Source of the DNA: a virus
DNA length: 64,000 nucleotides
Virus record (IMG/VR): IMGVR_UViG_3300010052_000207
Location: 6,790 to 70,789 of that record
Strand: one strand, 5' to 3'
Shown in pieces: positions 4,187-64,000 of the stretch. The position numbers were made by a program, and so were the translations under genes. Below the pieces are notes generated by a model, which worked only from the letters and a program-made list of their open reading frames with translations, did no database searches and was not told where the DNA came from. Numbering within the stretch: the first letter of the stretch is position 1; each line of letters begins with the position of its first letter.

Positions 4187-4187
4187 A

Positions 4188-32246: not shown

Positions 32247-32269
32247 CGCATTCCCTCGCAAAAAACATA

Positions 32270-32298: not shown

Positions 32299-32356
32299 CC
32301 GGCTTACTACATTCCTAAACTTAAATCAACAAACAACTTATGGAACGAGGCACCCA

Positions 32357-32725: not shown

Positions 32726-32736
32726 GGAAGCATCCA

Positions 32737-33486: not shown

Positions 33487-33496
33487 AGGGGGCGGT

Positions 33497-33778: not shown

Positions 33779-33848
33779 CCGAATCGCGAGCCGGGGCGTG
33801 ACTGCACCCCGGCACACCATCAATCAACCCAAGGAAGGAACTAAACAA

Positions 33849-34355: not shown

Positions 34356-34390
34356 GGGAAAGGGGGCGGGCAACCGCCCCCGACTGCCTC

Positions 34391-35116: not shown

Positions 35117-35275
35117 TAACGAACAGTCAAGGGATACGATTCAATTGATGGTTGATGCTTACAATCGCACCATGTTGCATCTTCGAGGCTCTGAACGCGG
35201 CATGTCGAGAGTCGAGAAGCAGCGGCGTTCAATGCAGGCGGCACTGTTGGTGATCCAAAACGATGGGGCTTCAGC

Positions 35276-44419: not shown

Positions 44420-46135
44420 TCATGCCGCGATCCTCGCTGGTTCGAGTCCAAATTGGGCCCTCACCATCGCTGCCGCGTTCGGTGGGCTGACCGAGTTACC
44501 GCACATCCGGACTTGGGCTGTCTTCGTGAGCGGCTTCCCGTCGATCACCGGGTCGATGACGTAGGCGTCGTAAAAGCCCTGGGCTCTGTACAGCTCGCGT
44601 GGCGAGAGCATCCGCAGGCCGATGTCGGCGATCAGGTAGTCCTCGCCCCTGACGGTGACGAGCCCGAACCGGTCCTTGCTCGTGACGGTGTGCAAAGGCT
44701 CCCCCAGCCGCGGGTCCTGATCGGTGCCGAAGTACTTGACCAGGAACGCCCGAACCTCGGCGAGGTGCAGCCCCTGGGCGCTGACGGTTGCCATCGGCTC
44801 CGTCACCGGCTGTCCGTCGCGGCAGGTGCCCCGAAGCTTCACCAGGTTCGAAGTGACGAGGCTGTGGTGATCTGACGACGTGACCGTGCCGATTGGCTGC
44901 CCGACGCCGTGACCAACGACCCCGCCGTAGTGCTTGGCGAGGAACGCGCTCACGAGGGCGTGCTTCGGCCCACCGGCGACGACCGTTCCGAGCGGCCGGC
45001 CGAGGCCGGGCGCGCGCGGGGCCTGGCCGTCGCGTTCGCCGTACCCGACCTCGATAAGGGTCGGGCTGACGAGCGCCGTGTGCGACTCGGCCGTCAGGGT
45101 GGCGTGCGGTTGGTCGGCGGGCCGAGGCTTGCCGGAGTACGACGGGCCGCCTGCCCCCACGAAGTAGGGGGTGCAGAGTGCAAAGTCGCCGGAAGCCGCG
45201 ACTGTCGGAAGTGGCTCGCTGAGTGCGTGCTCGCCGTTGCCCCACCGTCGGCTGTTCGGGCCAGACGAACCGTGGGCGGTTCTGACAATGAACGGCTCGG
45301 GCGAGTCGATGACATACCGCCGGAGGCCCGCCGCTACCCGCCGGAGCGTGTTCTCGGCCAGCGGCTTCTTGCGGTCGAAGATGCTTGGGCACGGGATGGA
45401 CCAGTCGATGCACTCCGCTGCTGTCCGCCACGGCTTCAAATGGCTGCTGAACAAGTCGCCGCCGATTTTCTTCGGGCTGGCGTGCGTCGGCTCTGGCCAC
45501 ACGATCCGTTGGCCGTCGCGCCTGGCGACGATGAACAGCCGCTTGCGGATGGTCGGCGCTGAATAATCGCAGGCTCGCAGTTCCCGCCACTCGACGACGT
45601 AGCCAAGATTACGGAGCTGGGATAACCACCGCTGGAAGGTCTTGCCCTTCCGCTCCGGGCACGGGTATCCCTCGTCATCCAGCGGACCCCAGTCCTGGAA
45701 CTCCTCGACGTTTTCCAGGATAATGACCCGAGGGCCGACGGCCTTGGCCCACTTGACCACGATCCAGGCGAGACCGCGAATCTTCTTGTTAACCGGCTTG
45801 CCGCCCTTGGCCTTCGAGAAGTGCTTGCAGTCGGGGCTGAACCAAGCCAGCCCGACCGAACGACCGGCGCAGGCTTCGACCGGATTCACTTCCCAGACGT
45901 CCTCGCAGTAGTGCTGCGTATCCGGGTGGTTCGCGGCATGCATGGCGATTGCCTCCCGGTCGTGGTTGATCGCGATGTCGGGCGAGCGGCCCAGGGCCAT
46001 TTCGATGCCGAGGGAGGCACCGCCGCCCCCAGCAAAGTTGTCGACGATGATTTCAGATGGGAGGAGGCCGAACGCGATGCCATGGTGAACAGGCTGTTGC
46101 GCGCGGCGTGAAGGCGTGGTAATCGTGTCGGTCAT
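44420..46135 (-). CDS. C5 cytosine DNA methyltransferase, phage type with long variable region
   Basis: DNFAGGGGAS (I), FSPDCKHFS (IV), ILENVEEF (VI), TIRKRLF (VIII), MCGNSV (X). Confidence 0.95.
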   Translation of the reverse strand: MTDTITTPSRRAQQPVHHGIAFGLLPSEIIVDNFAGGGGASLGIEMALGRSPDIAINHDREAIAMHAANHPDTQHYCEDVWEVNPVEACAGRSVGLAWFSPDCKHFSKAKGGKPVNKKIRGLAWIVVKWAKAVGPRVIILENVEEFQDWGPLDDEGYPCPERKGKTFQRWLSQLRNLGYVVEWRELRACDYSAPTIRKRLFIVARRDGQRIVWPEPTHASPKKIGGDLFSSHLKPWRTAAECIDWSIPCPSIFDRKKPLAENTLRRVAAGLRRYVIDSPEPFIVRTAHGSSGPNSRRWGNGEHALSEPLPTVAASGDFALCTPYFVGAGGPSYSGKPRPADQPHATLTAESHTALVSPTLIEVGYGERDGQAPRAPGLGRPLGTVVAGGPKHALVSAFLAKHYGGVVGHGVGQPIGTVTSSDHHSLVTSNLVKLRGTCRDGQPVTEPMATVSAQGLHLAEVRAFLVKYFGTDQDPRLGEPLHTVTSKDRFGLVTVRGEDYLIADIGLRMLSPRELYRAQGFYDAYVIDPVIDGKPLTKTAQVRMCGNSVSPPNAAAMVRAQFGLEPARIAA

Positions 46136-46195
46136 AATCGCTACTCCATTAGCGGTTTAGAGGTGGGGAGGCTGTCGGGCCTCCCCATTTCGTTA

Positions 46196-46969
46196 CTACA
46201 GTTTGCCGTTCCTATCCAGCGGTTTCTCAAAGACAGTGCATACGTCATGAAGACCCGGGATGAAGCTGCTACGATACACCTTCTTGCTGCTGCTGTTCCC
46301 ATGGCTGAACCGGATGATGTCCGTGCAGTGCTGCCGCAGCCCGGCCTCGAAGGCGAGCCGCTTCGTGTGATACACGAGCGGGACGTACCCGGCCTCGCGG
46401 TCCGAGTAGTCGCCCATCAGGATGGCGAACTTTCCGCCCGGCTTGAGGGCCTTTGCCCCGTTGCGGATGAACTGGCCGTAGCGACGCAGGAAGTGGTCGA
46501 GCGTCGGGGATCGCGACAGGTCGCGGAGATCTTCCGAGTAGAGCTTCTGCCGCCAGTAGGCCGGGTGGGCCCAGATGAAGTCGAACATCTGGTCGCCGAA
46601 CCCCTCCGTGGCGCAGGCGTCGAAACCCTGGTGGATATCGTAGGCCATGCACGGGACTCCAAGCTCTTGGCACACATCGGCGCATGTCCCTGACCCGCTC
46701 ATGGGATCGATGATTAGCCCCGGCCGGAAGTAGAGCAGCAGGTCCTTGATGAGGTTGCCGCCGCAGTTGCCGGGCCATTTCCGGCTGCCGTAGTTCCCCG
46801 CCTCGGCAAAGTGGTAGAGGCTGGTCAGGTGCGGCACCGGGCTGCCCGTAATCGGAGCGGCTGGCAGCTTGGCGTAGCCGGTCGGCGCCTTACGCGGGGC
46901 GACCGGTTCGGCGTTGTTGAATGGAAGGGTATGGGTGGAGTAGAGGATGTCGATGGCGGGAGAGGTCAT
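46196..46969 (-). CDS. Amino (N6-A/N4-C) DNA methyltransferase-like protein
   Basis: IIDPMSGSGT SAM motif followed by HPAY variant of the (D/H)PPY catalytic motif. Confidence 0.8.
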   Translation of the reverse strand: MTSPAIDILYSTHTLPFNNAEPVAPRKAPTGYAKLPAAPITGSPVPHLTSLYHFAEAGNYGSRKWPGNCGGNLIKDLLLYFRPGLIIDPMSGSGTCADVCQELGVPCMAYDIHQGFDACATEGFGDQMFDFIWAHPAYWRQKLYSEDLRDLSRSPTLDHFLRRYGQFIRNGAKALKPGGKFAILMGDYSDREAGYVPLVYHTKRLAFEAGLRQHCTDIIRFSHGNSSSKKVYRSSFIPGLHDVCTVFEKPLDRNGKL

Positions 46970-47024: not shown

Positions 47025-47291
47025 TCATTTCGCGGTCACGTTGTCGGCTTCGCGTCGGCCCTTGGCGTCAGACCGCTTCTGGAGCTTGATCCAGGCGTAG
47101 GACTCGCGGAGCAGTTCCGACATGGCCAGCAGGTCATCGGCGTTGAGCGAGTCGGTCTCCTTCCAGGTGTCGTCGCCCTGGCGGTACGACCGCTGCGGGT
47201 TGGCGGTGTAGTAAGTGCCTTTATCGGAGGTATTACGCCAGATGGTCACGGAGAGGCTGCCGTCGCGGAACTTGATTGCGGGAGAAGACAT
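47025..47291 (-). CDS. Small SSB/SpoVG-like plasmid protein
   Basis: SLSVTIWRN..RSYRQGDDTWKETDSL..DLL pattern; RBS AAGGA. Confidence 0.65.
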   Translation of the reverse strand: MSSPAIKFRDGSLSVTIWRNTSDKGTYYTANPQRSYRQGDDTWKETDSLNADDLLAMSELLRESYAWIKLQKRSDAKGRREADNVTAK

Positions 47292-47299
47292 TGGATTTT

Positions 47300-47560
47300 C
47301 CTTTTAGTTTCCGGGCCGCTTCATTGCGTCCCGTGGGATTGCGCGGCACCGGCCACAGGCGGCCGTGTGGCGTAGCGGAAAGCTGAAAAGCCGAAGGCTT
47401 CCGCCTGCGGAAAGCGGCTTTTCTGCTTCACTCGGCTGACGGCTGGTGCAGCATCCCATCGTCGGGACACATGCGGCACCGGTCACTCGAGAGGAGAAGG
47501 GCGGCTGGCTGAGCGATCGACGCCGTGCAATTGGCATCTCCTATTTGCCTCCTTGCGTAG
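47300..47560. other. Hairpin-rich non-coding region of plasmid type
   Basis: Multiple short inverted repeats, no credible ORF. Confidence 0.35.
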
Positions 47561-47644: not shown

Positions 47645-48601
47645 ATGGCACTTTTGCTGGAGCAATGGAAGCCTGTAGTTGGCTATGAAGACCTATACGA
47701 GGTCACGAATATGGGCAGGATTCGCGGAATCGTTGCCGGAATCGTGATTAGGCAACGCGGCGGGAGAAGGGAGAGCCCGACTGTCAGCCTGTCAAAAGAC
47801 GCCGCAAGACGCCATTGCCATGTTCATGCGATTGTGGCGGATGCTTTTTTGGAAGGCTCCCCCGACCTGACAGAAGTGGTCCATGCCGATGGGTGGAGGA
47901 TCAACAACCGGGTCAGCAATTTGCTTCGTTTGTCCGCGCAAGAGTTTAGCGACAGGCAGAAAGCCGCGCGCAGGGAGTACGCCCGGCTATACTTTCACCT
48001 CAACAGTGAACGGATCAAGGCATTGGCAGAACCGCGAGCGGAGGAGCGGAAGGCCAGCCAAAGGCTGTACTATCGGCGAAACAAACAGCAAGTGGTCGAG
48101 AAAATTGAGGCATATCGCAAGCAGAACAAGGACAAGATTAACACTCGCACCCGTCGCAAGCGGGTTGAATGCGCTGAGTTCGCGCACAAGGAGAAGGGGT
48201 GGCATACGAAGAGGTACACTACGAGCCGCCGTTACCGGCTCCGCGTCCTCACCACAAATGCCAAGTGGCGATCCAAAGCGGCGGGCATCGAGGCCGACGC
48301 CGCTTGCTTCGAGGCGATGCTCGCAGCACCGCCCGCTGAATGCTCGTGCTGCGGCAGCGAGCTTGACTACGAAGGTAAAACTGCCCGCTCTCCGTCCCTT
48401 GACCGGATTCACAACGACTTCGGCTACATCGTCGGAAACGTAGCGGTGATCTGCATCCGGTGCAACTCGTTGAAGAAGAACGGCACCGTCTCCGAGTTTG
48501 AGCGAATTCTCGCGTACATGAGGCGTGCTGAGCCGCCGGCCGCCGCCGCGACCGCGTCCTCATTGCCCCGGGCTTTCTGGAAGCAGGAGCGGGGCGGCTA
48601 G
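47645..48601 (+). CDS. NUMOD4/HNH homing-endonuclease-like protein with a second C-terminal His-Me finger domain
   Basis: WKPVVGYEDLYEVTNMGRIR (NUMOD4); VVHADG..NNRVSNL; basic helical linker; CSCC..SLDRIHNDFGYIVGNVAVICIRCN. Confidence 0.85.
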   Translation: MALLLEQWKPVVGYEDLYEVTNMGRIRGIVAGIVIRQRGGRRESPTVSLSKDAARRHCHVHAIVADAFLEGSPDLTEVVHADGWRINNRVSNLLRLSAQEFSDRQKAARREYARLYFHLNSERIKALAEPRAEERKASQRLYYRRNKQQVVEKIEAYRKQNKDKINTRTRRKRVECAEFAHKEKGWHTKRYTTSRRYRLRVLTTNAKWRSKAAGIEADAACFEAMLAAPPAECSCCGSELDYEGKTARSPSLDRIHNDFGYIVGNVAVICIRCNSLKKNGTVSEFERILAYMRRAEPPAAAATASSLPRAFWKQERGG

Positions 48602-48614
48602 CCGCATCATCCCC

Positions 48615-48643
48615 TTGCGCGGTTCTACTTACCCTGCTAAGTC
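48615..48643 (+). promoter_or_regulatory. Promoter TTGCGC-N17-TAAGTC for a probably leaderless relaxase mRNA; overlaps a small hairpin (oriT candidate)
   Basis: ACTTA/TAAGT stem; ATG 9 nt downstream without RBS. Confidence 0.45.
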
Positions 48644-48651
48644 GGTGGCGA

Positions 48652-51465
48652 ATGATACGTACCCACTGGATGACATCCGCCTCAGCCGCAAAGGCTTACT
48701 ACAGGGCTTCCGACTATTATGCCTCCGTGCCGGGGGTGTGGCTCGGGGAGGGAGCTGAGAAGCTCGGGCTTACTGGCCCAGCCCGGCCCGAGGATTTCGA
48801 CCGGCTGGCCGATAACCTTCATCCTCAAACCGGTGAAAGGCTCACCACCTATACCCGCGATGGTCGCCGGGTGGGAATGGATATGACTTTCAACGCCACC
48901 AAATCGGTGAGCATCGCTCGGGAAATGGCGGGGCCTGGTAACGAGGGAGATCCGCAGATTGAGACAGCACACGACGAAGCGGTCGCGTACACGCTCAGCC
49001 TCATCGAGAAAGAGATGCAGGCGAGGGTGCGTGTTGGCGGCTCCCGCGAGAACCGCATCACCGGGAACCTGGTCGCCTACGCCGTCACGCACCGCGACAC
49101 TCGTATCAACGCGGAAGACGGAAAGCCCGACCCCAGCCTCCATAAGCACGTGTTCATCATGAACGCGACGTGGGACCCCGTCGAGCAGAAATGGAAAGCC
49201 GCGGAGTTGGGGCAGCTCAAGCACGACCTTCCATTTTTCGAGGCCGTTTTTCACAACCGCCTCGCCTCGAACCTTAAGGAGCTTGGCTACGGGGTCGAGC
49301 GGAAGGGCAAGGCGTTTGAGATCGCCGGGGTGTCCGATGAGCTGGGCAAGAAGTTCAGCCGCCGGACGGCGTACATCGAGAAGGTCGCGGGCAAGCTCGG
49401 CATCACGAAGCCGGAGTCGAAGGCGAAGCTCGGTGCGACGACCCGGCTGGGCAAGGCCAAGGAGCTCGCGGACGACCTGAATGGCTACTACGTCAGCCGA
49501 CTCACTGGAGAAGAGAAACAGCAGCTTGCCGGGCTGGAAGGCTGGGCCGGGTACGAGTCCAACCCAAAGCACGCGGTCGAGTTCGCCATCGGCCACTTGT
49601 TCGAGCGGCGGTCAGTGGTCGAGGAGAAGAAGGTTTACGAGGCGGCCCTGCGGCACGGCATCGGGTCGGTGACACCGGAAGCGGTTGCGGCAGAAGCGAA
49701 GCGGCAGGGGCTGCTGGTGCGAAACGGGGAGGCGACGACGAAGGCGGTGCTGGCCGAAGAGCAGCGGGTGATCGCGTTCGCTCGGGATGGCAAGGGGACG
49801 TGCCGGCCGTTGGGTAACGCAAAAGGCCGCCCCGGTGATCCAGAACGGCCTTTGAACACAAAGGAAGATGGCGTGGCGGGGTTAGAGCTTCATAGCGGCC
49901 TCGACGGTTCTAGGATGAACGGCGGATTGCAGACGAAGCTTGCCACAGCCTTAGCCGTCGCGCAACCGGCTTTTGCGACCGACACCCATGTCAGCCCCTC
50001 CCTCTCCCCCGAACAAGCCGTCATGGTCAACCACGTCCTCACCTCGCCCGACCGGGTGATGCTGGTGATCGGCGACGCGGGGACAGGCAAGACCTTCGCC
50101 GTCCGTTCCGCATTCAATCGCATCGACCGACCGGTTGAGATCATCGCCCCCAGCGCCGACGCCTCCCGCGGCGTGCTCCGGCGGGAGGGATTCTCCAATG
50201 CCGACACGGTGACCGCCTTCCTCGGCAACCGCGATCGCCAGGCGGGCGTCAAGAACGGCGTCATCTGGGTGGACGAAGCGGGCCTGCTGCCCATCCGCGA
50301 CCTGTCCCTCCTCGTGGACGTGGCGAAGGCCCAGAACGCCCGGCTGGTGCTGCAAGGGGACCCGAAGCAACACCGCTCGGTGGCGCGCGACGGCAATATG
50401 CTGAACGTGCTCCAGTCGCACGCCGGGCTGCCGGTTGCACGGCTCAAGGACATTCGCCGCCAGCGGGACAAGTACAAGAAGGCCGTGACCGCCCTTGCCG
50501 ACGGACGGTTCGGGGCCGGTTTCGACGCGATCAACGACCTGGGCTGGGTGAAGGAAACGCCCGTATTCGACCACAACCAGCCGCTCGTGGGCGCCTATCT
50601 CGATGCGGTGGACACGAAACGCTCCGACCAGGATGTCACCGACCGGGTGCTTGCCATCGCCCCGACGCACGTCGAAGCAAACGAGGTGACGGCCGCCATC
50701 CGCGACGGCCTGAAGGCTCGGGGCATGGTCGGAAAAGAAGAGCACCAGGTGTCCACGCTGGTTCCCCTTCACTGGACCGAGGCCGAACGCGGGGATCTGG
50801 AGCGGTTTGAGGGCACCGAGGTCATCCAGTTCCACCGTAAAAGCGGGTCGTTCAAGGCCGGGCAGCGGATCGCCATCGCCGATTTCAAAAAGGGCGACCG
50901 GCTGGGCAAGCCCTCGACCTACGCCGTGTACCGGCCCGCCTCGGTGAACCTCGCCGAGGGCGACCGCATCCGCATAACGGGAAACGGCTGGACGGCGGAC
51001 AAGAAGCACCGGCTCGACAATGGGGCGCAGTACGAGGTGGCGGGGTTCGAGGATGACGGCAAGATCCGCTTGACCAACGGGTGGTTCGTCGCCCCGGACT
51101 TCGGCCATCTGTCGCACGGCTACGTCGCCACGTCCCACGCCTCGCAGGGAAAGACCGTCGATCGGGTGCTCATAGCGATGGGCCATGAGTCGCTGCCGGC
51201 CATCAGCGCCGAGCAGTTCTACGTCTCGGTGTCCCGCGGCCGCGATCAGGCGACAATCTTCACCGGCGTGGCGCCGGCGGTCCTGCGTGAGGCCATTCAG
51301 CGTGGCGACGCGCGGAAGTCAGCGACGGAACTGATGGGTACGAAGGAGCGGCGGGAGTGGTGGCTGGCGCGCCGGGCACGGGCCGCGTGGGAGGCCTTGC
51401 GCGGACGGGTGACGGGTGGTATTCCGGAACGCCAGCAGCAAAGGGAGATGGGTTATGCGAGGTAG
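48652..51465 (+). CDS. mobF: MobF (TrwC/TraI-type) relaxase-helicase
   Basis: AYY..DYY tyrosines, GMDMTFNATKSVS, HUH motif H..PSLHKH, GDAGTGKT, WVDEAG, HGYVATSHASQGKTVD, QFYVSVSRGR. Confidence 0.95.
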   Translation: MIRTHWMTSASAAKAYYRASDYYASVPGVWLGEGAEKLGLTGPARPEDFDRLADNLHPQTGERLTTYTRDGRRVGMDMTFNATKSVSIAREMAGPGNEGDPQIETAHDEAVAYTLSLIEKEMQARVRVGGSRENRITGNLVAYAVTHRDTRINAEDGKPDPSLHKHVFIMNATWDPVEQKWKAAELGQLKHDLPFFEAVFHNRLASNLKELGYGVERKGKAFEIAGVSDELGKKFSRRTAYIEKVAGKLGITKPESKAKLGATTRLGKAKELADDLNGYYVSRLTGEEKQQLAGLEGWAGYESNPKHAVEFAIGHLFERRSVVEEKKVYEAALRHGIGSVTPEAVAAEAKRQGLLVRNGEATTKAVLAEEQRVIAFARDGKGTCRPLGNAKGRPGDPERPLNTKEDGVAGLELHSGLDGSRMNGGLQTKLATALAVAQPAFATDTHVSPSLSPEQAVMVNHVLTSPDRVMLVIGDAGTGKTFAVRSAFNRIDRPVEIIAPSADASRGVLRREGFSNADTVTAFLGNRDRQAGVKNGVIWVDEAGLLPIRDLSLLVDVAKAQNARLVLQGDPKQHRSVARDGNMLNVLQSHAGLPVARLKDIRRQRDKYKKAVTALADGRFGAGFDAINDLGWVKETPVFDHNQPLVGAYLDAVDTKRSDQDVTDRVLAIAPTHVEANEVTAAIRDGLKARGMVGKEEHQVSTLVPLHWTEAERGDLERFEGTEVIQFHRKSGSFKAGQRIAIADFKKGDRLGKPSTYAVYRPASVNLAEGDRIRITGNGWTADKKHRLDNGAQYEVAGFEDDGKIRLTNGWFVAPDFGHLSHGYVATSHASQGKTVDRVLIAMGHESLPAISAEQFYVSVSRGRDQATIFTGVAPAVLREAIQRGDARKSATELMGTKERREWWLARRARAAWEALRGRVTGGIPERQQQREMGYAR

Positions 51466-51868
51466 TTGGGCAAAGGAAGCGAAAGCAACGGTAGAGCAGC
51501 CGGACGGGGAAGCATCGACGGCGGACGAGGCGCCGGAGATAGACCTCGGCCCGTGCGCCGCCATCGCCAAGAATAAGTGGGTCACGGCACTGACTATTCA
51601 GCACGCAGGGAAGGCGTGGGAGTCGTTCCAATATTCCTTCTTGAGCGTGCGAAGCGTCTTCGAGCCGACGCGATTCGAGGTGGACTTCGCCTCGCATGAC
51701 GAGCGGTTCAAGGTCGTCGTCACGGGCCGGAACCTCGAAAAGCTCTACAATTTGGTGCTCCAGGGGCGAATGGAATGGCTCCGGGCCGCCGATCGGGACT
51801 TTGGGCAGGACGGCGAAACGATTATCCTTAAGATCGACGTGGTGCCGGTGGAAGACAAACGGCGCTGA
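51455..51868 (+). CDS. Relaxase-adjacent hypothetical protein
   Basis: Overlaps relaxase stop; RBS GGGAG. Confidence 0.7.
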   Translation: MRGSWAKEAKATVEQPDGEASTADEAPEIDLGPCAAIAKNKWVTALTIQHAGKAWESFQYSFLSVRSVFEPTRFEVDFASHDERFKVVVTGRNLEKLYNLVLQGRMEWLRAADRDFGQDGETIILKIDVVPVEDKRR

Positions 51869-51888
51869 CCGCGGCGGGGACTGGCTTC

Positions 51889-52563
51889 ATGCTGACCATC
51901 GACGTGATTTCGGACGTGATCTGCCCGTGGTGCTTCATCGGCAAGCGGCGGCTGGAGAAGGCCCTTGAGGGCCGCCCGGCTTCCGTCCGCTGGCACCCGT
52001 TCCAGCTCAACCCCGACATGCCACGCGAGGGCATCGAGCGGCGGGAATACCGGATCAGGAAGTTCGGGAGCTGGGAGCGATCGCAGGAACTCGACGCCCA
52101 GGTGGCCGCCGCCGGAAGGGGCGAGGGGATCGCGTTTAACTTCGACCGGCAATCTCGCACCCCGAACACGCTCGACGCGCACCGGGTGATCTGGCTTGCA
52201 GGCGAGCGGGGCGTGCAGGACGCGGTGGTTGAGGCCCTGTTCCTGGCTTACTTCACCGATGGCCGCGACCTGTCCGACCGGGCGGCGCTGGCCGAGGTGG
52301 TGGTGGGGGCGGGGCTCGACCGGGACGAGGTGGACGAGTTGCTCGAGGGCGACGGTGGGCTGGACGTGGTGCGTGCGGGCGAGGAGCATGGCCGCCGCCT
52401 CGGCGTATCGGGCGTGCCGTTCTTTGTCATCAACGGGAAGGTCGCGGTATCCGGGGCCCAGCCGCCGGAGGCGTTCCTGCAGGCGATCGAGCAGGCAGGT
52501 GAGGCGGTCGTGGCCGGGGAAGCCTGCGAGGTGGATCCGGTGACGGGCAAGCGAGAGTGCTGA
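51889..52563 (+). CDS. DsbA-family (FrnE-like) oxidoreductase
   Basis: IDVISDVICPWCFIGKRRL, PFQLNP, NTLDAHR, GVPFF, SGAQP. Confidence 0.93.
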   Translation: MLTIDVISDVICPWCFIGKRRLEKALEGRPASVRWHPFQLNPDMPREGIERREYRIRKFGSWERSQELDAQVAAAGRGEGIAFNFDRQSRTPNTLDAHRVIWLAGERGVQDAVVEALFLAYFTDGRDLSDRAALAEVVVGAGLDRDEVDELLEGDGGLDVVRAGEEHGRRLGVSGVPFFVINGKVAVSGAQPPEAFLQAIEQAGEAVVAGEACEVDPVTGKREC

Positions 52564-52592
52564 GCCGAGAGCGAGCCCCAGAAACACCGAAA

Positions 52593-52617
52593 GCCGGGTA
52601 GGACATGCCTACCCGGC
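52593..52617. terminator. Perfect 10-bp hairpin ending the mob operon
   Basis: GCCGGGTAGG-ACATG-CCTACCCGGC; no clear U-tract. Confidence 0.45.
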
Positions 52618-57766: not shown

Positions 57767-58555
57767 TCAGTTCCGGCTGAACGCCTCGGCCAACGTCCAC
57801 AGCCCCTTGTGGATGCGAATGTCCGCTTCGATCTGCTTGACGGGCCGGGTGCGAATCCTCCGACCCCTGCCGTTGATGCCCTGTACCCCGCCTCGGATAA
57901 GGCTCTCTTCGAGCACGTTCGTTGTGGTCCAGAGGTCGCGGTTCCCGTCTCCGTCCGTATAGTCAGCCTCCCGCCTTGCCGTCAGCAGGAAGGCGGCTTT
58001 CACCGCCGGGTTGGGCTTCAGGTCCATCGCCCGGTGGGCCATTTCGAGTTGCTCGGGGCGGGTCATGATGAGGCTCTTCCAGGCCTCGACCGTGTCCAGG
58101 GCCTTCACGGAATCGGACACCACGGAATAGGTGGCGTCGATGATCCGCTTGCCCAAGTCGTCGCCTGAGTGCCGGACGCTGATGCCGCCGAGTTCTCCGG
58201 TCGGGCAGACCAACCCGTTCAGGCAGGCAACGCGCCATAGGCCCACGTTCAGGCGGTAGGCGGAGGTCCCGTCGAAGGAGTTGGTCAGGACCACCTCGGG
58301 GATCTCGGTCGCCATGCCGGCGTCGATGTCCTCGGACCGTCGGAAGCGAATCAGGTGCTTGACGTATTTCCGCTTGTCGAGCTGGCGGCAACGCGACTGC
58401 CGGGCCCGGACGGGGAAGAGGCCGATGCCTTCGAGGAGGTCCACCACGTCGGCGGTTGCGGCCACGCGGTAGCGATCGGTCATCGTGTGGTAGGGGCTTC
58501 GGGTGAAGATGGAGGGCGCCACGTCTCGAAGGTCGTCGCGGGTCATGATCTGCAT
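57767..58555 (-). CDS. DUF932-family protein (plasmid/ICE-associated)
   Basis: APSIF..YVKHLIRFR..PEVVLTNSFDGTSAY..GLWRVACLNGLV..DLWTTTNVLEESL. Confidence 0.9.
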   Translation of the reverse strand: MQIMTRDDLRDVAPSIFTRSPYHTMTDRYRVAATADVVDLLEGIGLFPVRARQSRCRQLDKRKYVKHLIRFRRSEDIDAGMATEIPEVVLTNSFDGTSAYRLNVGLWRVACLNGLVCPTGELGGISVRHSGDDLGKRIIDATYSVVSDSVKALDTVEAWKSLIMTRPEQLEMAHRAMDLKPNPAVKAAFLLTARREADYTDGDGNRDLWTTTNVLEESLIRGGVQGINGRGRRIRTRPVKQIEADIRIHKGLWTLAEAFSRN

Positions 58556-59006: not shown

Positions 59007-59615
59007 GTGAGTAAATACCGGTTCAATGACGACATGCAGGAAATCAGCGGCTTCGGAGGAAATTACGAGGCGTGTTGCCGCCGGATGCTCGCCGCCGCCC
59101 TCGAATGGCTTGATGCCAATCCCCAAGCCGATCCCCAATTCAGCGGCTACAAGAACATCTATGGCGTAATCAACGAGGACAATGAGGACGCGAAGGCATT
59201 GTCCAGAGCTGCTCTTGATGGGGCAGGCGAATACGGTCCGTCAGGTGCTCAACACCAGGCCGTTATCACCACCGCCCTTTGGATCAAGGCAAATGGCTGG
59301 TGGCCGGCATACGTCAAACAGATGACCCATCCAGAAGGCCAAGTTGGCATCCTGAAAGACAAGCTGGCCAGGGCCAAGGAAGATCTTGAGGGCGCCCGGA
59401 TGCGATGTGAAGAGCTCATGGAGGAGAACCTCAAACGCGGCACCATCATCGCCGAGAAGGTGCTCGGCTGGCAGCGATATAAGGTCGAAAACGGCATGCA
59501 GATGGCCTATGCGCCGAGCAAGGAAGCGCTTGAGCGCATTATCTGCGGTGATTCGTTATTCAAGCTGGTCGACGAAGCGATCCAGCAACTGAGCCCGACC
59601 CGCGAGGCGGCATGA
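59007..59615 (+). CDS. Hypothetical phage protein
   Basis: RBS GAGGTG; ends REAA with ATGA overlap. Confidence 0.7.
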   Translation: MSKYRFNDDMQEISGFGGNYEACCRRMLAAALEWLDANPQADPQFSGYKNIYGVINEDNEDAKALSRAALDGAGEYGPSGAQHQAVITTALWIKANGWWPAYVKQMTHPEGQVGILKDKLARAKEDLEGARMRCEELMEENLKRGTIIAEKVLGWQRYKVENGMQMAYAPSKEALERIICGDSLFKLVDEAIQQLSPTREAA

Positions 59616-60046
59616 CCACCAACCCCGGCGCAAGCCCCAAATCACCCCGCTATTTCTACCGAAACGCTCATCACGCCCTGTCGATGATGATCGACCACGA
59701 CATGAAATTCTTGGTTGAGCACTACGCCACCAAGGAGCTATTGCAGGCGAATGTCGAATGGCTGGCGATGCACATTTTCGGCAAGCTCAGCGGTAAACCG
59801 GTTCAACCCGTCCGTCTCTTCGTCCACCCCGACAGCTTGCACCTGCTGGAGCCGCAGGTTGGAGATGTTTGCGTGCTGGGCAGCGGCTGCGTCGCCACAT
59901 ATGTCCAGAAGCAAAATTCCGCCTTGCTTGGGGTTATCGGTTTTTCGGGCCTACCTCACTACGGCAACGCCGATTCAAATCCGATTGCTGGCATCATCCA
60001 GCGCAACGGCATCGCCTTCCACTGGCCCGAGAGCGAGGCAGCATGA
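59612..60046 (+). CDS. Hypothetical phage protein
   Basis: ATGA overlaps on both sides. Confidence 0.65.
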   Translation: MTTNPGASPKSPRYFYRNAHHALSMMIDHDMKFLVEHYATKELLQANVEWLAMHIFGKLSGKPVQPVRLFVHPDSLHLLEPQVGDVCVLGSGCVATYVQKQNSALLGVIGFSGLPHYGNADSNPIAGIIQRNGIAFHWPESEAA

Positions 60047-60438
60047 CCGTGCCGGACAAAACCATCAGTGAGCAACGCCGCCCCCACTATCTTGGGCAAA
60101 CGAATTTCTACAACCTCAACGCCGCTTGCCGGACTGTGCTGAGTGCCTTTCCTTTCGGGTATGGGGTGTTCTTGGTCGGGTCAGCGCTTCGCACCAAGGA
60201 TTATCGAGATGTTGATGTTCGCGTGATAATTCCGGACGAGAAATTCGACACGCTGTTCCCCGATTACAAGCCGAACAACCCGGATACTTTCTGGCATTTC
60301 ACATGCACCGCGATGTCCGAATGGCTGCAAGCCAGAACTGGATTGCCGATAGATTTCCAAGTTCAAAAGGCAGGCGATGCGAACCGTGATTTCCCTGCGG
60401 AAAGCAATCCTCGAAATGCTGTGGGTCGGATTCTATGA
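60043..60438 (+). CDS. Minimal nucleotidyltransferase (Pol-beta superfamily)
   Basis: VFLVGSALRTKDYRDVDVRVI fits hG[GS]-x(n)-DhDh; third acidic residue in PIDFQV. Confidence 0.75.
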   Translation: MTVPDKTISEQRRPHYLGQTNFYNLNAACRTVLSAFPFGYGVFLVGSALRTKDYRDVDVRVIIPDEKFDTLFPDYKPNNPDTFWHFTCTAMSEWLQARTGLPIDFQVQKAGDANRDFPAESNPRNAVGRIL

Positions 60439-60749
60439 GCGACCTCGCCCAAGTCGCCCTCGACTTCTGCCGCGAATGCCTCGGATGGGCAGACGTTCCG
60501 GCATACGACATTACTGACGGCGTGGCCTTCAAGTTCAACGACCTCAACGCCGTGATGGCGGCGGCACGCTCTTGGATGCCCGGCAAATCAGGCTCCGTCA
60601 GCTTACATTGTTTCGATGGTGAACTGTTCGTGGCGGTGGTGCTTTCGGATCGCGAGTCAGGGGTGCGTTCTGAGCCTCTAGTCGACCCCTGCCACGCCCT
60701 TATGGCCGCCTGCGTCGAAGCCGCCCGTAAGCTCAGGGCAACCGCCTAA
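60435..60749 (+). CDS. Hypothetical protein
   Basis: ATGA overlap; clean ORF. Confidence 0.65.
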   Translation: MSDLAQVALDFCRECLGWADVPAYDITDGVAFKFNDLNAVMAAARSWMPGKSGSVSLHCFDGELFVAVVLSDRESGVRSEPLVDPCHALMAACVEAARKLRATA

Positions 60750-61096
60750 AACGGCAGATCCACCTCCGCCTCAACCTTCCGCCGCGACGCCTTCACGCGG
60801 TCTCGCCAGTTCGATGGTTCCTCGAACGTCGGATCATCGTCCGGGCTGAGTAGAACGGGCATCTCGATGCAGGTTTCCTCGCCGGTTGCGAGCTTCTCGG
60901 ACACGAGGCTGTCGATCTTCCGCTCGGCGGCCTGCAGGTGCAGCCAGTCCTTCGCTGATTGGGCATCACCGCCGAAATAGCGGTTCACCAGCGACTGGAA
61001 GCCTTTGCGTCCGATCTCGGCCATGTGCTTCGGCCCGTAGCGTCGGAAGGTTTCGGAGCCTCCTTTGCTCCCTGCGGTGCGGTGGTCCTGGGGCAT
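60746..61096 (-). CDS. KGG-motif-like small protein
   Basis: AGSKGG..MAEIGRKG. Confidence 0.6.
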   Translation of the reverse strand: MPQDHRTAGSKGGSETFRRYGPKHMAEIGRKGFQSLVNRYFGGDAQSAKDWLHLQAAERKIDSLVSEKLATGEETCIEMPVLLSPDDDPTFEEPSNWRDRVKASRRKVEAEVDLPF

Positions 61097-61105
61097 CCGG
61101 CGGGG

Positions 61106-61659
61106 CTATTCGATCTCGCGCTGCTTCACCTTGCTCAGGTTCGCAACGTTCACACGCTCGGGGATCTCCGGGTTCTCCCAATTGATCGTGGCGATTTTCA
61201 GGCTGCCGAGGTCCTTGATCGCGGTGACGGTCCCCTTGGCACGGGGGAGGTCGCCCGTGTGGGTGCCGGTGGATTGGAGCCAGGCTCGGGAGTAGCGGAC
61301 ATGGTCGCCTACCTCGATGGCTTTGACGCGGTTGCCCCAGGTCATGCTCCGGGCTTTCTCAGCTCGCCGCTCGCCAGCCTCGCGAGCGTATCGCGGGCCA
61401 TCTTCACGATCGCCCGATGAGCGGGGGCCAGATCGCTTCCGTCATGTAGGGCCATGAATGCCATTACCCTCTCCAAACCATCCCGCTCCCTGGTGACGCG
61501 GGTCAGTTCATTCTGCAACATTGCCAGCTCGGTGATCTTCTCCGAGCAGTAGCGGTCAATTGGCTCGGGCGTCCTCGGCTTCGCGGCGGCCCCGGCCGGA
61601 TCTCCTACGCCGTGGACGATCGGCTCCCCGCTCGGCACGAAAGAGTGCTTGCCGCTCAC
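61106..61659 (-). other. Two small hypothetical genes (61106-61345, 61342-61659)
   Basis: Chained overlaps. Confidence 0.55.
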
Positions 61660-62195
61660 CGGCCGAGCCCTTCCCGTTCCCGTGCCAGATCAGCGGCAAC
61701 GCGTTTCGCGTCCACCAAGTTGGCGCCGGGGCTCTCGGGGTCGTAGCGTTCCCACTGACGGCGTGCCGTCTTGTAGACGAAATTCTTACCCGACTCGCCG
61801 ACGGCTTCGAGGATGTCCTTCTCAGCACGGGTCGGCAGGCGGTCTTCGGCGAACTGAAGGGCGGAGACCTTCCTGTCGAGCGACCGATTGACCTTGATCC
61901 CGGCGGCCGGGAAGCTGTCGACGTTTACGAAGCCATCGGGGATGGGGCCGAAGGCGGATTTGCTGGCTTTTACCGCCTCGGCGAAGCTGGCCGGCAAGCC
62001 CTCGGGTTTGGCCTTGGCCTCGTGGTCGGCGATGATCGCCGCGATCGGTGATTGCTCGATGACGGCGGCGACGGGGGTCGGCTCGCGGCTCTCGATGGTT
62101 TCCTTGGCGGCTGACCGACGACGTTTGGGCTTCGGCTCCAACGGTGCGGCTTCGAGTGACGCGATTGCGGCGGGGGTTTTCTTCTGGCGGGACAT
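61656..62195 (-). CDS. Hypothetical plasmid-type protein
   Basis: RBS GGGAGA before MSRQKK. Confidence 0.65.
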   Translation of the reverse strand: MSRQKKTPAAIASLEAAPLEPKPKRRRSAAKETIESREPTPVAAVIEQSPIAAIIADHEAKAKPEGLPASFAEAVKASKSAFGPIPDGFVNVDSFPAAGIKVNRSLDRKVSALQFAEDRLPTRAEKDILEAVGESGKNFVYKTARRQWERYDPESPGANLVDAKRVAADLAREREGLGR

Positions 62196-62208
62196 CGGCC
62201 GGTCTCCC

Positions 62209-62553
62209 TTAAGCGAGAGCCGCGACGATTGCCTTGAACAACGCGTCCTTTTTCTGCTGCTCGACCGGAAGTTCCTCGTAAGGGACACAGCAAGGATGCG
62301 TTTTCTTCTCCGGGTCTTTCACCTCGCCATAAACCCAGCCATCGGCCAGCTTGTCCTTGAGCCACGCTTCGTGCTGCGCTGATGCAGGTGCCTCGGGATT
62401 TGCGAGTACGTATTCAGCTCCCTTTATGGCGCTTGCACGCTGCCATTCCGCCGCTTGATCCCACGGAAGTTGGCTGTCGTCGCCGATGCCCTGGCAGTAG
62501 GCCTTATTCGCTTCGTGGCAGACTTTTGCGATCGATTCGATAGAGTATTCCAT
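62209..62553 (-). CDS. RyR-domain phage protein
   Basis: HEAWLKDKLADGWVYGEVKDPEKKTHPCCVPYEELP..QQKKD; RBS AAGGAGG. Confidence 0.85.
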   Translation of the reverse strand: MEYSIESIAKVCHEANKAYCQGIGDDSQLPWDQAAEWQRASAIKGAEYVLANPEAPASAQHEAWLKDKLADGWVYGEVKDPEKKTHPCCVPYEELPVEQQKKDALFKAIVAALA

Positions 62554-62581
62554 GGTGCCTCCTTGCTGTTTCGGCAGGAGG

Positions 62582-63043
62582 CTAGCCCGGCGATTTCCTA
62601 TTGTCAACTTTCAACGCACGGATCGCCTTCTCGGCCAGCGGCTTCTTCTCGATGCCGGACTTGGCGTAGCGACACAGCGTCCGGTAGGGGATGCCGGTAT
62701 CGCGGCTCATCTGGGCGAGGAAACGAGAGGTGCCGTAGAAGGCGAGGCCTATGGCGTGAATTTCAGCGGACGTCATGCGGAGGTTTCGATCAGCGATTCT
62801 GAAGAATTCATCGTTTTACTAACTCATCAGGGTTAAGTGCAAAGCGTTTGCAAAGCTGCTTGGCATAGGTAGAGCCAAGGCCGAAACATTGCATTACGGC
62901 AATCCATCGCTCATGCTTTTGACCCTTGCGATAATCACCCCTGGCGGAAAGCACCGCTCTGCGCAGAAGCGTAAAATCATCAACGTCTGCAACTGTTCCG
63001 GTAAGCGGGAGAAGCGTGCTCGTGGCAGTATCTGGTTTTTTCA
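62582..63043 (-). other. Two small hypothetical genes (62582-62776 HTH-like, 62808-63043)
   Basis: Clean short ORFs in operon orientation. Confidence 0.55.
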
Positions 63044-63045
63044 TT

Positions 63046-63735
63046 TTACCATCCATTTCTATCGACGTATATTTGCACCTGTTTTCTGATTTCATTATGC
63101 TCTGGCCTGCGCGTGAAAGAGCATCGCAGGAACAACCTCCAGCCCGGGGTTTTGGTCGGTGTCGCACGGTGAATGGCGTTTTGGTTAAAGTGGATGACTT
63201 CGCGGTTTTTGATGAACCGCGTTTTGCAATCCGGCATGTCGTTCACCGCCTTATCAAGGCTGTGCCACACATCGCACCGATCTAATTCGACGGTAAGCGG
63301 CTGGGTAACGAACTGAGTACAAGAATTGCCGTCCTCAGATTCTCCGACAATCGCCATATAGTGCGTAACGCTGTCATCGGCATCTTCCGGGTTCGGTTGG
63401 GCGTACCTCTCCGACCTGTTGAAGTCGTCACAATGCCAGCCAGGAAGTGAGGGATAGGCACCCGGCATCGTCATAGTCACGCGGCTGTCGATCACAATGT
63501 TTAGACCCTTGGCTTCATGAGTGCGAAATTGCTCATCGAAAATGGGGTTTCCTGATAATACGCGCATAAATTCTTTGAGAATCGCACCGCCGTAGCCGTG
63601 GGCGTAATCCCAGCAAGCGCCGAACAGCATTGTTTCGTCGCGGATTTCTTTTAACGAACGTGGCTGTAGCTCTCCCACGGTATAAATATTCGGGGTGAAT
63701 GTGTGCGATATACCATCTATAAACCCGTTGCTCAT
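63046..63735 (-). CDS. 2OG-Fe(II) dioxygenase-like protein
   Basis: PGWHCD (HxD), distal AIHRA histidine, WRLFLR arginine; ATGA overlap start. Confidence 0.72.
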   Translation of the reverse strand: MSNGFIDGISHTFTPNIYTVGELQPRSLKEIRDETMLFGACWDYAHGYGGAILKEFMRVLSGNPIFDEQFRTHEAKGLNIVIDSRVTMTMPGAYPSLPGWHCDDFNRSERYAQPNPEDADDSVTHYMAIVGESEDGNSCTQFVTQPLTVELDRCDVWHSLDKAVNDMPDCKTRFIKNREVIHFNQNAIHRATPTKTPGWRLFLRCSFTRRPEHNEIRKQVQIYVDRNGW

Positions 63736-63908
63736 AACCAGCAACTTGGAATAGATACATAATGGCGACTATCGGTAGCCGTTGCGATTGCTGCCTTTTG
63801 ATTGGCCAGACATGCGGCATTGCTATCGGCCACTATGTTCTGCCAGCGTATAATCAGACCGCCAAGAATCACAGCAACTAAAATTATTCCCAGAAATTTT
63901 TCCCTCAT
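63732..63908 (-). CDS. 58-aa protein with N-terminal TM/signal
   Basis: RBS GGAGAG; MREKFLGIILVAVILGGLIIRW. Confidence 0.6.
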   Translation of the reverse strand: MREKFLGIILVAVILGGLIIRWQNIVADSNAACLANQKAAIATATDSRHYVSIPSCWL

Positions 63909-63945
63909 AACTCTCCTGTGCCGTTAATGCATTACTTCACCTCGC

Positions 63946-63976
63946 CTGACATTAGGCCAAATGGCCATATAGTCAA
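63946..63976. promoter_or_regulatory. Overlapping divergent promoters around GGCCA-AA-TGGCC palindrome
   Basis: Minus TTGACT-N16-TAATGT; plus CTGACA-N16-TATAGT. Confidence 0.45.
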
Positions 63977-64000
63977 GAAGTTTGTTTGTGCGAATAGGGC

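Follow-up and report, generated by a model that had tools for sequence, protein, structure and literature searches.

Planctomycetes of the Gemmataceae/Isosphaeraceae carry a family of integrated tailed-phage elements of 60-90 kb, in which a relaxase and a VirD4/TraG-type coupling protein (T4CP) are built into a common gene order: DarB-like gene, tail, head, replication genes, relaxase, ParB, T4CP and a single tyrosine integrase. On balance, we lean towards reading the element as a temperate phage with a complete MOB and T4CP module and no MPF, i.e., a hybrid of phage and IME with a relaxase that works intracellularly, by nicking or by rolling-circle activity. The window, i.e., the whole stretch of 64,000 nt that was analysed, spans positions 6,790-70,789 of IMG/VR record IMGVR_UViG_3300010052_000207 (85,603 bp, hereafter G000), an 85.6-kb provirus with a reported CheckV completeness of 100. 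Genes inside the window are given in window coordinates and those past its right end in record coordinates (G000:C1).

The phage part of the window consists of three modules, followed by two methylase genes just 5' of the relaxase block:

1856..12413, minus strand: endolysin and tail module, with tail fibre J, tape measure and others (endolysin phrog_7, E 1e-38; tail fibre phrog_5616 and phrog_31; tape-measure families)
22708..28876, minus strand: head/packaging module with major head protein, portal, TerL and TerS (PHROG profile matches)
29863..36958: replication/recombination module, with primase on the minus strand and Sak4-like annealase, SSB, Cas4-type exonuclease and helicase on the plus strand (PHROG matches)
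44420..46969, minus strand: two DNA methyltransferases of C5 and N6/N4 type (Pfam DNA_methylase, E 1.7e-27; N6_N4_Mtase, E 4.5e-05)

The head/packaging genes match phrog_10 (E 1.4e-76), phrog_12 (E 1.6e-75), phrog_2 (E 8.6e-35) and, for TerS, phrog_1482 (E 4.1e-29). Judged by its genes alone, the element is a temperate tailed phage (Caudoviricetes prophage) with TerS/TerL, portal, HK97-type major head protein, tail, lysis, integrase and repressor candidate. This gene set surrounds the relaxase, as the preliminary description of this DNA had stated in placing a relaxase inside an apparently complete tailed phage. The replication/recombination module is syntenic in two other elements of the family (G001 and G003) and in Tundrisphaera, and methylases also lie upstream of the relaxase in L006 and G002. 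No DNA-level similarity to the element was found among GenBank phages. A search of sequencing runs matched only two, with small word shares, and no RNA run was among the matches listed.

At the centre of the argument stands the relaxase gene:

48652..51465, plus strand: MobF (TrwC/TraI-type) relaxase fused to an SF1B helicase, 937 aa, intact (Pfam, NCBIfam, PDB, alignment)

The encoded protein matches Pfam TrwC (E 1.6e-61, 208.9 bits against a cut-off of 25), AAA_30 (E 9.5e-38) and UvrD_C_2, scores 174.4 bits against the NCBIfam MobF model NF041492 (cut-off 100), and its N-terminal segment was aligned to residues 15-249 of the solved TrwC relaxase domain 1omh (E 1.7e-26). In an alignment of 20 relaxases, Y16, Y22, D77, H147, H164 and H166 are invariant, as are Walker A (G474-T481) and Walker B (D541/E542). 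The attributes of MOBF are all present, namely a relaxase HMM match above cut-off, N-terminal tyrosines, an Asp + three-His HUH metal site and a C-terminal SF1B helicase; by profile and alignment, the ORF is an intact MobF relaxase-helicase, and the earlier claim of intact catalytic tyrosines, HUH and helicase motifs is borne out. When IMG/VR was searched for relaxases, the single sequence matched nothing and an alignment query gave six loci. The relaxase had also been credited with its own promoter, a claim that finds no backing in a sigma-70 consensus scan of 46900-48800, which matched nothing and is uninformative for planctomycete promoters.

The rest of the arm runs past the right end of the window:

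59007..64000, no strand assigned: start of the arm holding XRE, ParB-like, T4CP, SNF2 helicase and integrase genes
about G000:C1:71757-72671, minus strand: XRE/HTH_3 repressor candidate (HTH match)
G000:C1:72745-73605, plus strand: ParB-like gene
G000:C1:74131-75861, plus strand: VirD4/TraG-type T4CP (Pfam T4SS-DNA_transf PF02534, E 2.8e-68, 231 bits)
G000:C1:81594-83381: SNF2 helicase
G000:C1:84284-85603, minus strand: tyrosine integrase, the sole one in G000

Coupling protein, integrase and repressor had been described as absent from the window or not recognised, which is correct inside these 64 kb and does not hold for the full record, where a T4CP, a tyrosine integrase and an XRE/HTH_3 protein, whose gene is divergent from the ParB-like gene, are present. 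The T4CP combines a nucleotide-binding domain with a predicted N-terminal membrane anchor (two hydrophobic segments), as expected of the VirD4/TraG type; TraG-D_C and TrwB_AAD_bind are matched as well, and NCBIfam TraG/VirD4 models match, though below their equivalog cut-offs. A ParA/CbiA family match was not found in the element, which has only the ParB-like gene.

Around the relaxase, a candidate oriT and two recurrent small proteins were distinguished from variable cargo:

47025..47291, minus strand: 88-aa relaxase neighbour (four strands and a long helix), recurring beside relaxases at identities down to 38%, often divergently upstream
47298..47459, plus strand: conserved non-coding block with a 14-bp-stem hairpin (47365-47452), candidate oriT (cross-locus conservation, ssDNA fold)
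47645..48601, plus strand: homing-endonuclease-like gene with NUMOD4 and HNH_3 domains, lying between the candidate oriT and the relaxase gene (Pfam NUMOD4, E 1.5e-08; HNH_3, E 0.0038)
51416..51868, plus strand: 150-aa partner ORF overlapping the 3' end of the relaxase gene, directly downstream of the relaxase in 18 loci
51889..52563, plus strand: DsbA-family thioredoxin-fold protein in the relaxase operon, variable cargo (Pfam DSBA, E 8.5e-46, residues 3-200)

The non-coding block shares 77.6% identity over 156 nt with its counterpart in L004 (-297 to -145 from the relaxase ATG) and was also found in L011 and L007. Its hairpin has an ssDNA fold z of -4.5, and 6 of the 29 predicted pairs of the consensus hairpin are retained via both-side (compensatory) changes. 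The nick region had earlier been sought at 48602-48651; the conserved non-coding element is instead the one at 47298-47459. A motif, GCGATAGGGA, is common to the regions upstream of the relaxase in L006, L008, L009, L075 and L077 and is absent near the G000 relaxase, so that at least two types of upstream region exist. The gene at 47645-48601, formerly taken for a relaxase accessory gene, encodes a homing-endonuclease-like protein according to its Pfam domains. L004, L007 and L011 have no such gene at the corresponding position, and their conserved block is found at a distance of 145-300 nt from the start of the relaxase gene; in L013, a 54% homologue occupies the equivalent place. The conserved relaxase partners are the 150-aa and 88-aa ORFs. 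The AF2 model of the former (pLDDT 79) is beta-rich, with weak best matches to solved structures (Z 5 or less, PH/PTB-like), and the protein had no match in Pfam, PHROG or NCBIfam. That of the latter (pLDDT 90.6) gave weak fold matches to Pur-alpha and T5 PC4-like proteins (E 0.1-0.3) and a YbaB-like one (Z 5.6). For both proteins, a fold family was sought with Foldseek, without a match at E 0.001 or better, and with VIA (Z 5.6 or less). The DsbA-family protein, of which L004 has only a partial homologue, probably lacks a signal peptide, since its DSBA domain begins at residue 3.

The same gene order was found in at least eight diverged elements, including those in the complete chromosomes of Tundrisphaera lichenicola P12 and Gemmata sp. 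G18. Synteny extends over the whole element at 45-80% protein identity in the IMG/VR proviruses G001 and G004, is only partial in G003, and takes the form of an island of about 91 kb in the Tundrisphaera chromosome. In the latter, a tRNA-Arg gene adjoins the leftmost syntenic gene, and the integrase on the right is followed by HPPK and other housekeeping genes. Gemmata sp. G18 (G080), G082, G006 and G008:C3 likewise have portal, relaxase and T4CP in this order, at distances of 12-35 kb, and the order and spacing recur in Zavarzinella formosa and other genomes. The contiguity of phage genes and relaxase block is thus upheld by G001, G004, Tundrisphaera lichenicola P12, Gemmata sp. G18 and Zavarzinella formosa, and the arrangement is inherited within the family; neither a chimera nor accidental proximity accounts for it. 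Assembly of a phage contig with a plasmid or ICE contig might be suspected, as the source is a metagenome-derived provirus record; the arrangement recurs in cultured strains with complete chromosomes and in several assemblies made independently, which refutes such a chimera in practice.

Further portal-homologue loci extend the association. In all five that were examined, a TrwC-domain ORF is located to the same side of the portal, at a distance of 15-20 kb; one encodes a full-length relaxase (992 aa) and the other four stand-alone TrwC domains (350-551 aa), in which the Asp + three-His motif is conserved throughout and the N-terminal Tyr motif in three. A T4CP match was obtained in one of the five, G009a, and is weak (E 1.6e-06). 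Retention of stand-alone TrwC domains in prophages that mostly have no T4CP match points to a role of the nuclease domain that is independent of the T4CP. Among the dozens of full-length relaxase homologues (46-72% identity), no catalytic or helicase motif varies, partner ORFs and hairpin are also conserved, and the truncated versions retain the metal-site residues, the short relaxases of G117 and G177 still matching Pfam TrwC at E of about 1e-40. These observations speak against an inactive relic, i.e., non-functional remains that an old conjugative element left fixed in a lineage of phages. Such decay would accord with the lack of a pore for the relaxase to work with, with truncated relaxases in some relatives (of the helicase in G177, just a vestige of the Walker B region is left) and with stop codons in the portal of some related prophages; we regard it as very improbable.

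The idea that relaxase and structural module are strictly inherited together was considered and rejected: the TerL of G000 does not recur in its structural relatives, and G117 has the portal closest to that of G000 (72% identical) and a distant, short relaxase, relaxase and T4CP both being about 30% identical to those of G000. At least three different virion modules adjoin the relaxase arm, namely an HK97-type siphovirus (G000), one with a lambda-like GpA terminase (L006) and a sheathed-tail myovirus (G002), and distant relatives (L036 and L057) have compact DarB/T4CP/relaxase clusters within 12 kb and no visible phage genes. A semi-autonomous, IME-like backbone is therefore possible. As a search for free-virion relatives, a portal profile run against IMG/VR matched 80 HK97-type phages of a generic kind, whose portals are 38-56% identical, and did not recover any known member of the family; no relaxase or T4CP was found in these 80 loci (755 kb), which consequently serve only as a negative control.

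Two elements could have been lumped by the provirus caller, namely an IME-like island of about 39 kb (relaxase-T4CP-integrase plus DarB-like gene) and a prophage of about 46 kb inside or next to it, whose capsids the island may parasitise in the manner of a satellite. If the record were circularised, relaxase, T4CP, integrase and DarB would adjoin one another, leaving the phage genes as a single block of about 46 kb; the compact clusters of L036 and L057, the attachment of the arm to three unrelated virion modules, a G000 TerL that is not common to its closest structural relatives and the tRNA-Gly gene at the DarB/tail junction of G000 point the same way. Set against this, G000, G002 and G004 each have one tyrosine integrase, always at the T4CP end (G003 also has one there, among three in the record), and no serine recombinase was found in these four. 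Among the ORFs scanned in the left flank of the Tundrisphaera island there was no integrase. Moreover, the DarB/tail and replication/relaxase junctions are both conserved across elements only 45-60% identical, there is no GC break at the relaxase/phage junction, and the tRNA is not repeated. We therefore hold a composite of two elements to be distinctly unlikely.

Whether the module could serve conjugation depends on a mating pore. VirB4 (PF03135) was not found in the five element records (G000-G004), in five host genomes or in 401 Planctomycetia genomes, the same 401 in which 107 have a relaxase and 127 a T4CP; with these counts, mobilisation by a helper T4SS is poorly supported. In the five hosts, AAA_10 (PF12846) gave nothing above cut-off, only sub-threshold P-loop matches, and the Bacteroidetes TraG-type VirB4 model TIGR03783 gave none. 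An MPF with a VirB4-family ATPase, the hallmark of a self-transmissible ICE, was thus found neither in the element nor in the hosts or the class sample, whereas the gene content of an IME (integrase, relaxase and T4CP, no MPF) is present together with a full virion module that IMEs do not have. Independently, a 2024 preprint lists 29 MOBF relaxases on planctomycete chromosomes, frequently accompanied by a T4CP, and reports a complete MPF in none of 83 such chromosomes (10.1101/2024.01.22.576637).

The element had been proposed to be mobilisable in trans through a helper. The gene content stands behind this proposal, as the element carries its own T4CP; the pore does not. In a fuller form, the prophage would be conjugatively mobilisable, its relaxase nicking oriT and its T4CP passing the nucleoprotein to a pore in trans or to an unrecognised planctomycete-specific pore, with spread by both virion and cell contact. 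A full MOB and T4CP set with a predicted membrane anchor, the covariation of relaxase and T4CP types and the oriT-like hairpin fit this scheme, IMEs that pair a relaxase with a T4CP and exploit the pores of ICEs are a familiar case (PMC5704250), and a review mentions a report of possible prophage mobilisation by ICE conjugation (PMC12282955). The failure to find VirB4 or a complete MPF in the genomes listed above, and the survival of stand-alone relaxase domains in related prophages without a T4CP, weigh against it and make it, in our judgement, rather unlikely. Use of the relaxase for integration, as had been suggested, is not supported, since a tyrosine integrase is present.

Under the phage/IME hybrid reading, the DNA-processing set (oriT-like hairpin, relaxase, 150-aa partner, 88-aa neighbour, XRE candidate, ParB-like gene and T4CP), which occupies the stretch from the replication genes to the one tyrosine integrase of an integrated element of about 85-92 kb, would work on the element's own DNA. 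Specifically, induction and excision would be followed by nicking beside the hairpin, and the relaxase's own helicase would drive rolling-circle unwinding or replication of the excised circle, thereby serving the element's own cycle rather than classical conjugation. The T4CP, transcribed divergently from the repressor candidate, would probably be switched on at induction. Several observations count against this reading, the joining of the arm to different virion modules among them. A primase/helicase replication module is already in the element, so that the need for a second initiator is not obvious, and att repeats were not found: there was no direct repeat of the tRNA-Gly 3' end, none between the record ends, and none between the tRNA-Arg region of Tundrisphaera and the DNA beyond its integrase. 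Additionally, a T4CP that is predicted to be membrane-anchored and tracks the relaxase type, as in G117, fits an export function better than pure replication.

ICE relaxases such as NicK of ICEBs1 initiate rolling-circle replication of the excised ICE from oriT, and such ICEs also conjugate via their own T4SS. The proposed nick at the oriT of an intracellular circle and helicase-driven rolling-circle replication resemble the former activity; as for the latter, the sole visible transfer apparatus of the planctomycete element is, from its genes, the virion. With TrwC of R388 and TraI of F and pKM101, the relaxase shares the HUH domain, the paired Tyr, the three-His site and the C-terminal SF1B (RecD-like) helicase, as well as a VirD4/TrwB-type T4CP in the same element and a hairpin-containing non-coding block upstream. 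It differs from them in its location in an integrated tailed-phage element with no T4SS genes found in element or host, in having two conserved small proteins where no RHH-type accessory (TrwA) was recognised, and in its low sequence identity to solved relaxase domains (E 1e-26 level only). To our knowledge, Phi1207.3 (formerly Tn1207.3) has no recognisable relaxase/T4CP module, and its host phylum and phage type are different. For this 'conjugative prophage' of Streptococcus pyogenes, conjugal cell-to-cell transfer is claimed (PMC4260502).

IMEs with relaxase and T4CP, e.g., those of streptococci (PMC5704250, PMC5357655), likewise combine an integrase, a relaxase and their own T4CP without an MPF; they are usually under 30 kb, lack virion genes and hijack the pores of co-resident ICEs, whereas the planctomycete module is embedded in a complete phage gene set, in a class with no VirB4 among 401 genomes. 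Phage-plasmids (P1, N15 and SSU5 groups; PMC12282955) also mix phage genes with plasmid-type genes such as ParB-like, DarB-like anti-restriction and methylase genes. Theirs are extrachromosomal genomes with Rep/ParAB, however, and the previous suggestion of a phage-plasmid is contradicted by an element that is integrated, has one tyrosine integrase and no ParA found, and in Tundrisphaera is flanked on its right by housekeeping genes.

No published description of this planctomycete phage/mobilisable-element hybrid was found in the literature, and the preprint on planctomycete plasmids makes no phage connection for the relaxases that it reports (10.1101/2024.01.22.576637). Conservation of the relaxase in prophages with a T4CP and no pore found makes this family a possible source of the phylum's 'orphan' relaxases, for which it may account; at least within the Gemmata/Isosphaera group, such orphan pairs of relaxase and T4CP belong to the conserved content of tailed prophages that look inducible. 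A phage link for all planctomycete MOBF relaxases was rejected, as no phrog_2-type TerL was found near the relaxase in five genomes (relaxases 40-47% identical). More speculatively, and in our view improbably, a pore may have been swapped for a virion: a relaxase/T4CP/integrase backbone would have recruited HK97-type siphovirus, lambda-like and myovirus capsid-tail modules, with relaxase and T4CP directly involved in preparing or routing the exported DNA. If true, this would be a new gene-transfer route between conjugation and transduction and would explain the many 'orphan' MOBF + T4CP loci of the phylum. The role of a conjugative relaxase and T4CP in a phage of T4SS-less hosts, with replication, DNA routing and a new transfer route as candidates, can now be addressed in cultured strains (Tundrisphaera lichenicola P12, Gemmata sp. 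G18, Limnoglobus roseus PX52 and Zavarzinella formosa). Classifiers that treat relaxase or T4CP matches as plasmid/ICE hallmarks, a common practice, would mislabel this prophage family. The relaxase-to-T4CP arm holds one further recurrent gene:

57767..58555, minus strand: DUF932 protein (Pfam DUF932, E 1.7e-29; phrog_12094, E 2.9e-58)

Homologues of this protein are present in G001, Tundrisphaera, G117, G177 and G009a.

The preliminary description was right in its core claim of an intact MobF relaxase-helicase within an apparently complete tailed phage, as domain matches, invariant motifs and the surrounding phage genes all indicate. The ORF at 48652-51465 (+) encodes 937 aa, of which residues 11-271 match Pfam TrwC (E 1.6e-61), residues 13-252 the relaxase domain of the TrwC crystal structure 1omh (E 1.7e-26) and residues 451-636 Pfam AAA_30 (E 9.5e-38), and the protein scores 174 bits with the NCBIfam MobF model, above its cut-off of 100. 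Across an alignment with 19 homologues (50-72% identity), residues Y16, Y22, D77, H147, H164 and H166 are invariant, as are Walker A (G474-T481) and Walker B (D541/E542). Homologues at 46-72% identity come almost exclusively from Planctomycetota (Gemmata, Tundrisphaera, Aquisphaera, Zavarzinella, Limnoglobus, Fimbriiglobus and MAGs). Neither the relaxase domain nor the VirD4/TraG-type coupling protein (T4CP) is represented by a PHROGs family, and a search for the TrwC domain in 50,697 GenBank phage records matched only two unannotated faecal-metagenome fragments.

Judged by gene content, the relaxase surroundings are a complete-looking tailed phage. The 85,603-bp record (G000), of which the window spans bases 6790-70789, is classed by IMG/VR as a provirus with a CheckV completeness of 100, GC content runs without a break across the relaxase/phage junction, and the following features accompany the relaxase:

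G000:C1:1554-6857 (= L002:1554-6857), (-), left of the window: DarB-like anti-restriction helicase/methylase, 1767 aa (phrog_10089, 1435 bits)
window 579-654 (+): tRNA-Gly(TCC), precisely at the border of the DarB-like gene with the lysis/tail genes
~1.9-32 kb, minus strand: endolysin, tail fibre J, tape measure, major head protein, portal, TerL, TerS, primase
plus strand: Sak4-like annealase, SSB, Cas4-type exonuclease, helicase
window 41045-41713 (+), amid small early genes: another HNH_3 homing-endonuclease-like gene, the second in the element (Pfam E 3.1e-11)
upstream of the relaxase block: two DNA methylases
beyond the right end of the window, directly before the T4CP gene: ParB-like gene
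G000:C1:74131-75861, beyond the right end of the window: T4CP (PF02534 E 2.8e-68, TraG-D_C, TrwB_AAD_bind)
beyond the right end of the window, divergent from ParB-T4CP: XRE/HTH_3 protein
extreme end of the record: tyrosine integrase, the sole integrase in the record

The initial report of no coupling protein, repressor or integrase thus holds inside the window, but past its right end the record has a T4CP, a candidate repressor and an integrase; neither a serine recombinase nor ParA was found in the record. Since no repeat of the tRNA-Gly(TCC) was found elsewhere in the record, this tRNA looks element-borne rather than like an att site. Two stretches of the window are low in GC against ~0.62 elsewhere, namely 27232-29642 (0.57), containing TerL/TerS, which are not shared with the closest structural relatives, and 16001-18000 (0.54), containing a 485-aa ORF with no PHROG match; both look like recent module replacements.

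The gene at 47645-48601, initially taken for a relaxase accessory gene, is instead a NUMOD4 + HNH_3 homing-endonuclease-like gene, one of two in the element, and a consensus scan gave no promoter-like site for the promoter attributed to the relaxase. Similarly, the nick region first proposed at 48602-48651 has to be moved: these 50 nt preceding the relaxase start are unconserved, and conservation lies in a non-coding block at 47298-47459, which is 77.6% identical to the block located 145-297 nt before the relaxase start of the related locus L004 and recurs in L011 (Limnoglobus roseus PX52) and L007. Its ssDNA fold has a z of -4.5, and the consensus forms a hairpin whose stem is 14 bp long; 6 of the 29 pairs predicted across the block are kept via changes on both sides. 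This block is a candidate oriT. In G000 it is separated from the relaxase by the HNH gene, a position consistent with a putative homing-endonuclease insertion, and other relatives carry a second type of relaxase upstream region.

The relaxase-phage junction recurs well beyond this record. In an all-against-all comparison, the 75-kb IMG/VR provirus G001 matches G000 along the entire element (DarB-like 71%, tail genes up to 80%, head protein 51%, portal 56%, primase and helicase 55%, relaxase 58%, ParB 45% and T4CP 53% identity, with DUF932 also in common). The proviruses G004 and G003 share with G000 the relaxase, ParB and T4CP, together with the DarB-like gene, tail, head and portal in the former and the replication arm in the latter. 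The same gene order extends across ~91 kb of the complete Tundrisphaera lichenicola P12 chromosome, from a leftmost syntenic gene adjoining tRNA-Arg to an integrase followed directly by HPPK, aminotransferase and glycosyltransferases. The DarB-like gene is kept at the tail end of all four. A sample of 401 Planctomycetia genomes has 18 loci, spread over 11 genomes, with portal homologues (E 1e-30 or better). G006, G080 (Gemmata sp. G18), G082, G008:C3 (Zavarzinella) and G193 each have the relaxase 17-33 kb away from the portal and on the side seen in G000, and in the first four the T4CP comes 12-35 kb past the relaxase. The junction is thus real, and this shared order argues that the relaxase is in the phage element neither through a chimera nor as a chance neighbour; misassembly is extremely improbable.

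Some of these relatives have peculiarities of their own. Directly left of the Tundrisphaera island (L100:13695-16533; chromosome 6644694-6647532) lie TROVE (Ro60-like) and RtcB RNA ligase genes with a tRNA-Leu-like gene and a tRNA-Arg gene, a set that resembles the Ro/RtcB RNA-repair operon with tRNA-like RNAs. The 57-kb G004 has two T4CP paralogues, one per record end (L088:1302-2555 and L090, record coordinates 49614-51407; HMM E 1e-167 and 2e-296). The 143-kb G003 'provirus' (L091-L098) has tyrosine integrases at three places, near 1.3, 44 and 142 kb, and therefore probably comprises at least two adjacent elements; its match to the G000 family is confined to the part at ~65-142 kb.

Five further portal loci without a listed relaxase were fetched and inspected, and all five have a TrwC-domain ORF 15-20 kb from the portal, so that every examined member of this phage group has the domain. 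One is a full-length 992-aa ORF (Pfam TrwC + AAA_30); the other four, of 350, 354, 529 and 551 aa, are stand-alone domains, and the two longer ones (G117 and G177) match Pfam TrwC at E ~1e-40. A clear T4CP match was found at one of the five loci (G117), with a weak one at G009a (E 1.6e-06). As a control, relaxase and T4CP were both absent from 80 IMG/VR loci (755 kb) of other phages with portal homologues of 38-56% identity. All the further ORFs keep the Asp and the three His residues, and all except that of G009a show a clear N-terminal Tyr motif; set beside this pattern, the view that the relaxase set is an inactive relic seems very doubtful.

The arm of relaxase, 150-aa ORF, ParB, T4CP(-like) and integrase genes is also attached to other virion modules. 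It adjoins a lambda-type GpA terminase in L006 and, in the 61-kb provirus G002, a sheathed-tail myovirus module (tail sheath phrog_23, portal phrog_145, head phrog_283), where the relaxase locus has the layout of that in Limnoglobus roseus PX52. The arm is thus modular, and modules are also shuffled within the HK97-type group. G117 has the portal closest to that of G000 (72%) with a short, distant relaxase and T4CP (~30% each), and the TerL of G000 is not common to its structural relatives; hence relaxase and T4CP types co-vary while the portal varies independently, which hints that relaxase and T4CP may function as a pair. In the distant relatives L036 and L057, the DarB-like gene, T4CP and relaxase lie inside 12 kb. 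A phage link for all planctomycete MOBF loci was ruled out, because five genomes with 40-47% identical relaxases have no phrog_2-type TerL nearby. G000 itself is an integrated, single-integrase element in which full gene sets for virion and replication are combined with an intact MOB and T4CP set; that it comprises two nested or tandem elements, a phage and an IME-like island, is an improbable reading.

No mating pore was found to accompany this set. VirB4 (PF03135) was found in none of the five element records, five host genomes and 401 Planctomycetia genomes; of the last, 107 have a MobF relaxase and 127 a T4CP, commonly 3-35 kb apart. In the five hosts, AAA_10 gave only sub-threshold P-loop matches and the Bacteroidetes TraG-type VirB4 model none. 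This agrees with a preprint describing 29 MOBF relaxases across 21 planctomycete chromosomes, in many cases alongside a T4CP, and no complete MPF (10.1101/2024.01.22.576637); in its term-matched passages, 'phage integrase' and a text filter are the only mentions of phages. Having no MPF, the element does not qualify as conjugative on gene content; it is a stable hybrid of phage and IME, in a class for which no T4SS ATPase was found among the sampled genomes. Genuine mobilisation, by way of a pore that is foreign or went unrecognised, is an unlikely but less remote alternative.

Slightly favoured is a role in the element's own cycle, in which the relaxase would nick next to the hairpin on the excised circle and drive rolling-circle unwinding or replication. 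Such a role would explain the nuclease domain without helicase or T4CP in related prophages. The T4CP operon faces the XRE repressor gene, so the T4CP is probably induced together with early genes. In the literature searched, no account of prophages bearing a conserved module of MOBF relaxase and T4CP was found. Besides the two N-terminal hydrophobic segments that form the usual membrane hairpin, the G000 T4CP has a third at its extreme C-terminus (residues ~549-575), which appears unusual among VirD4/TraG proteins.
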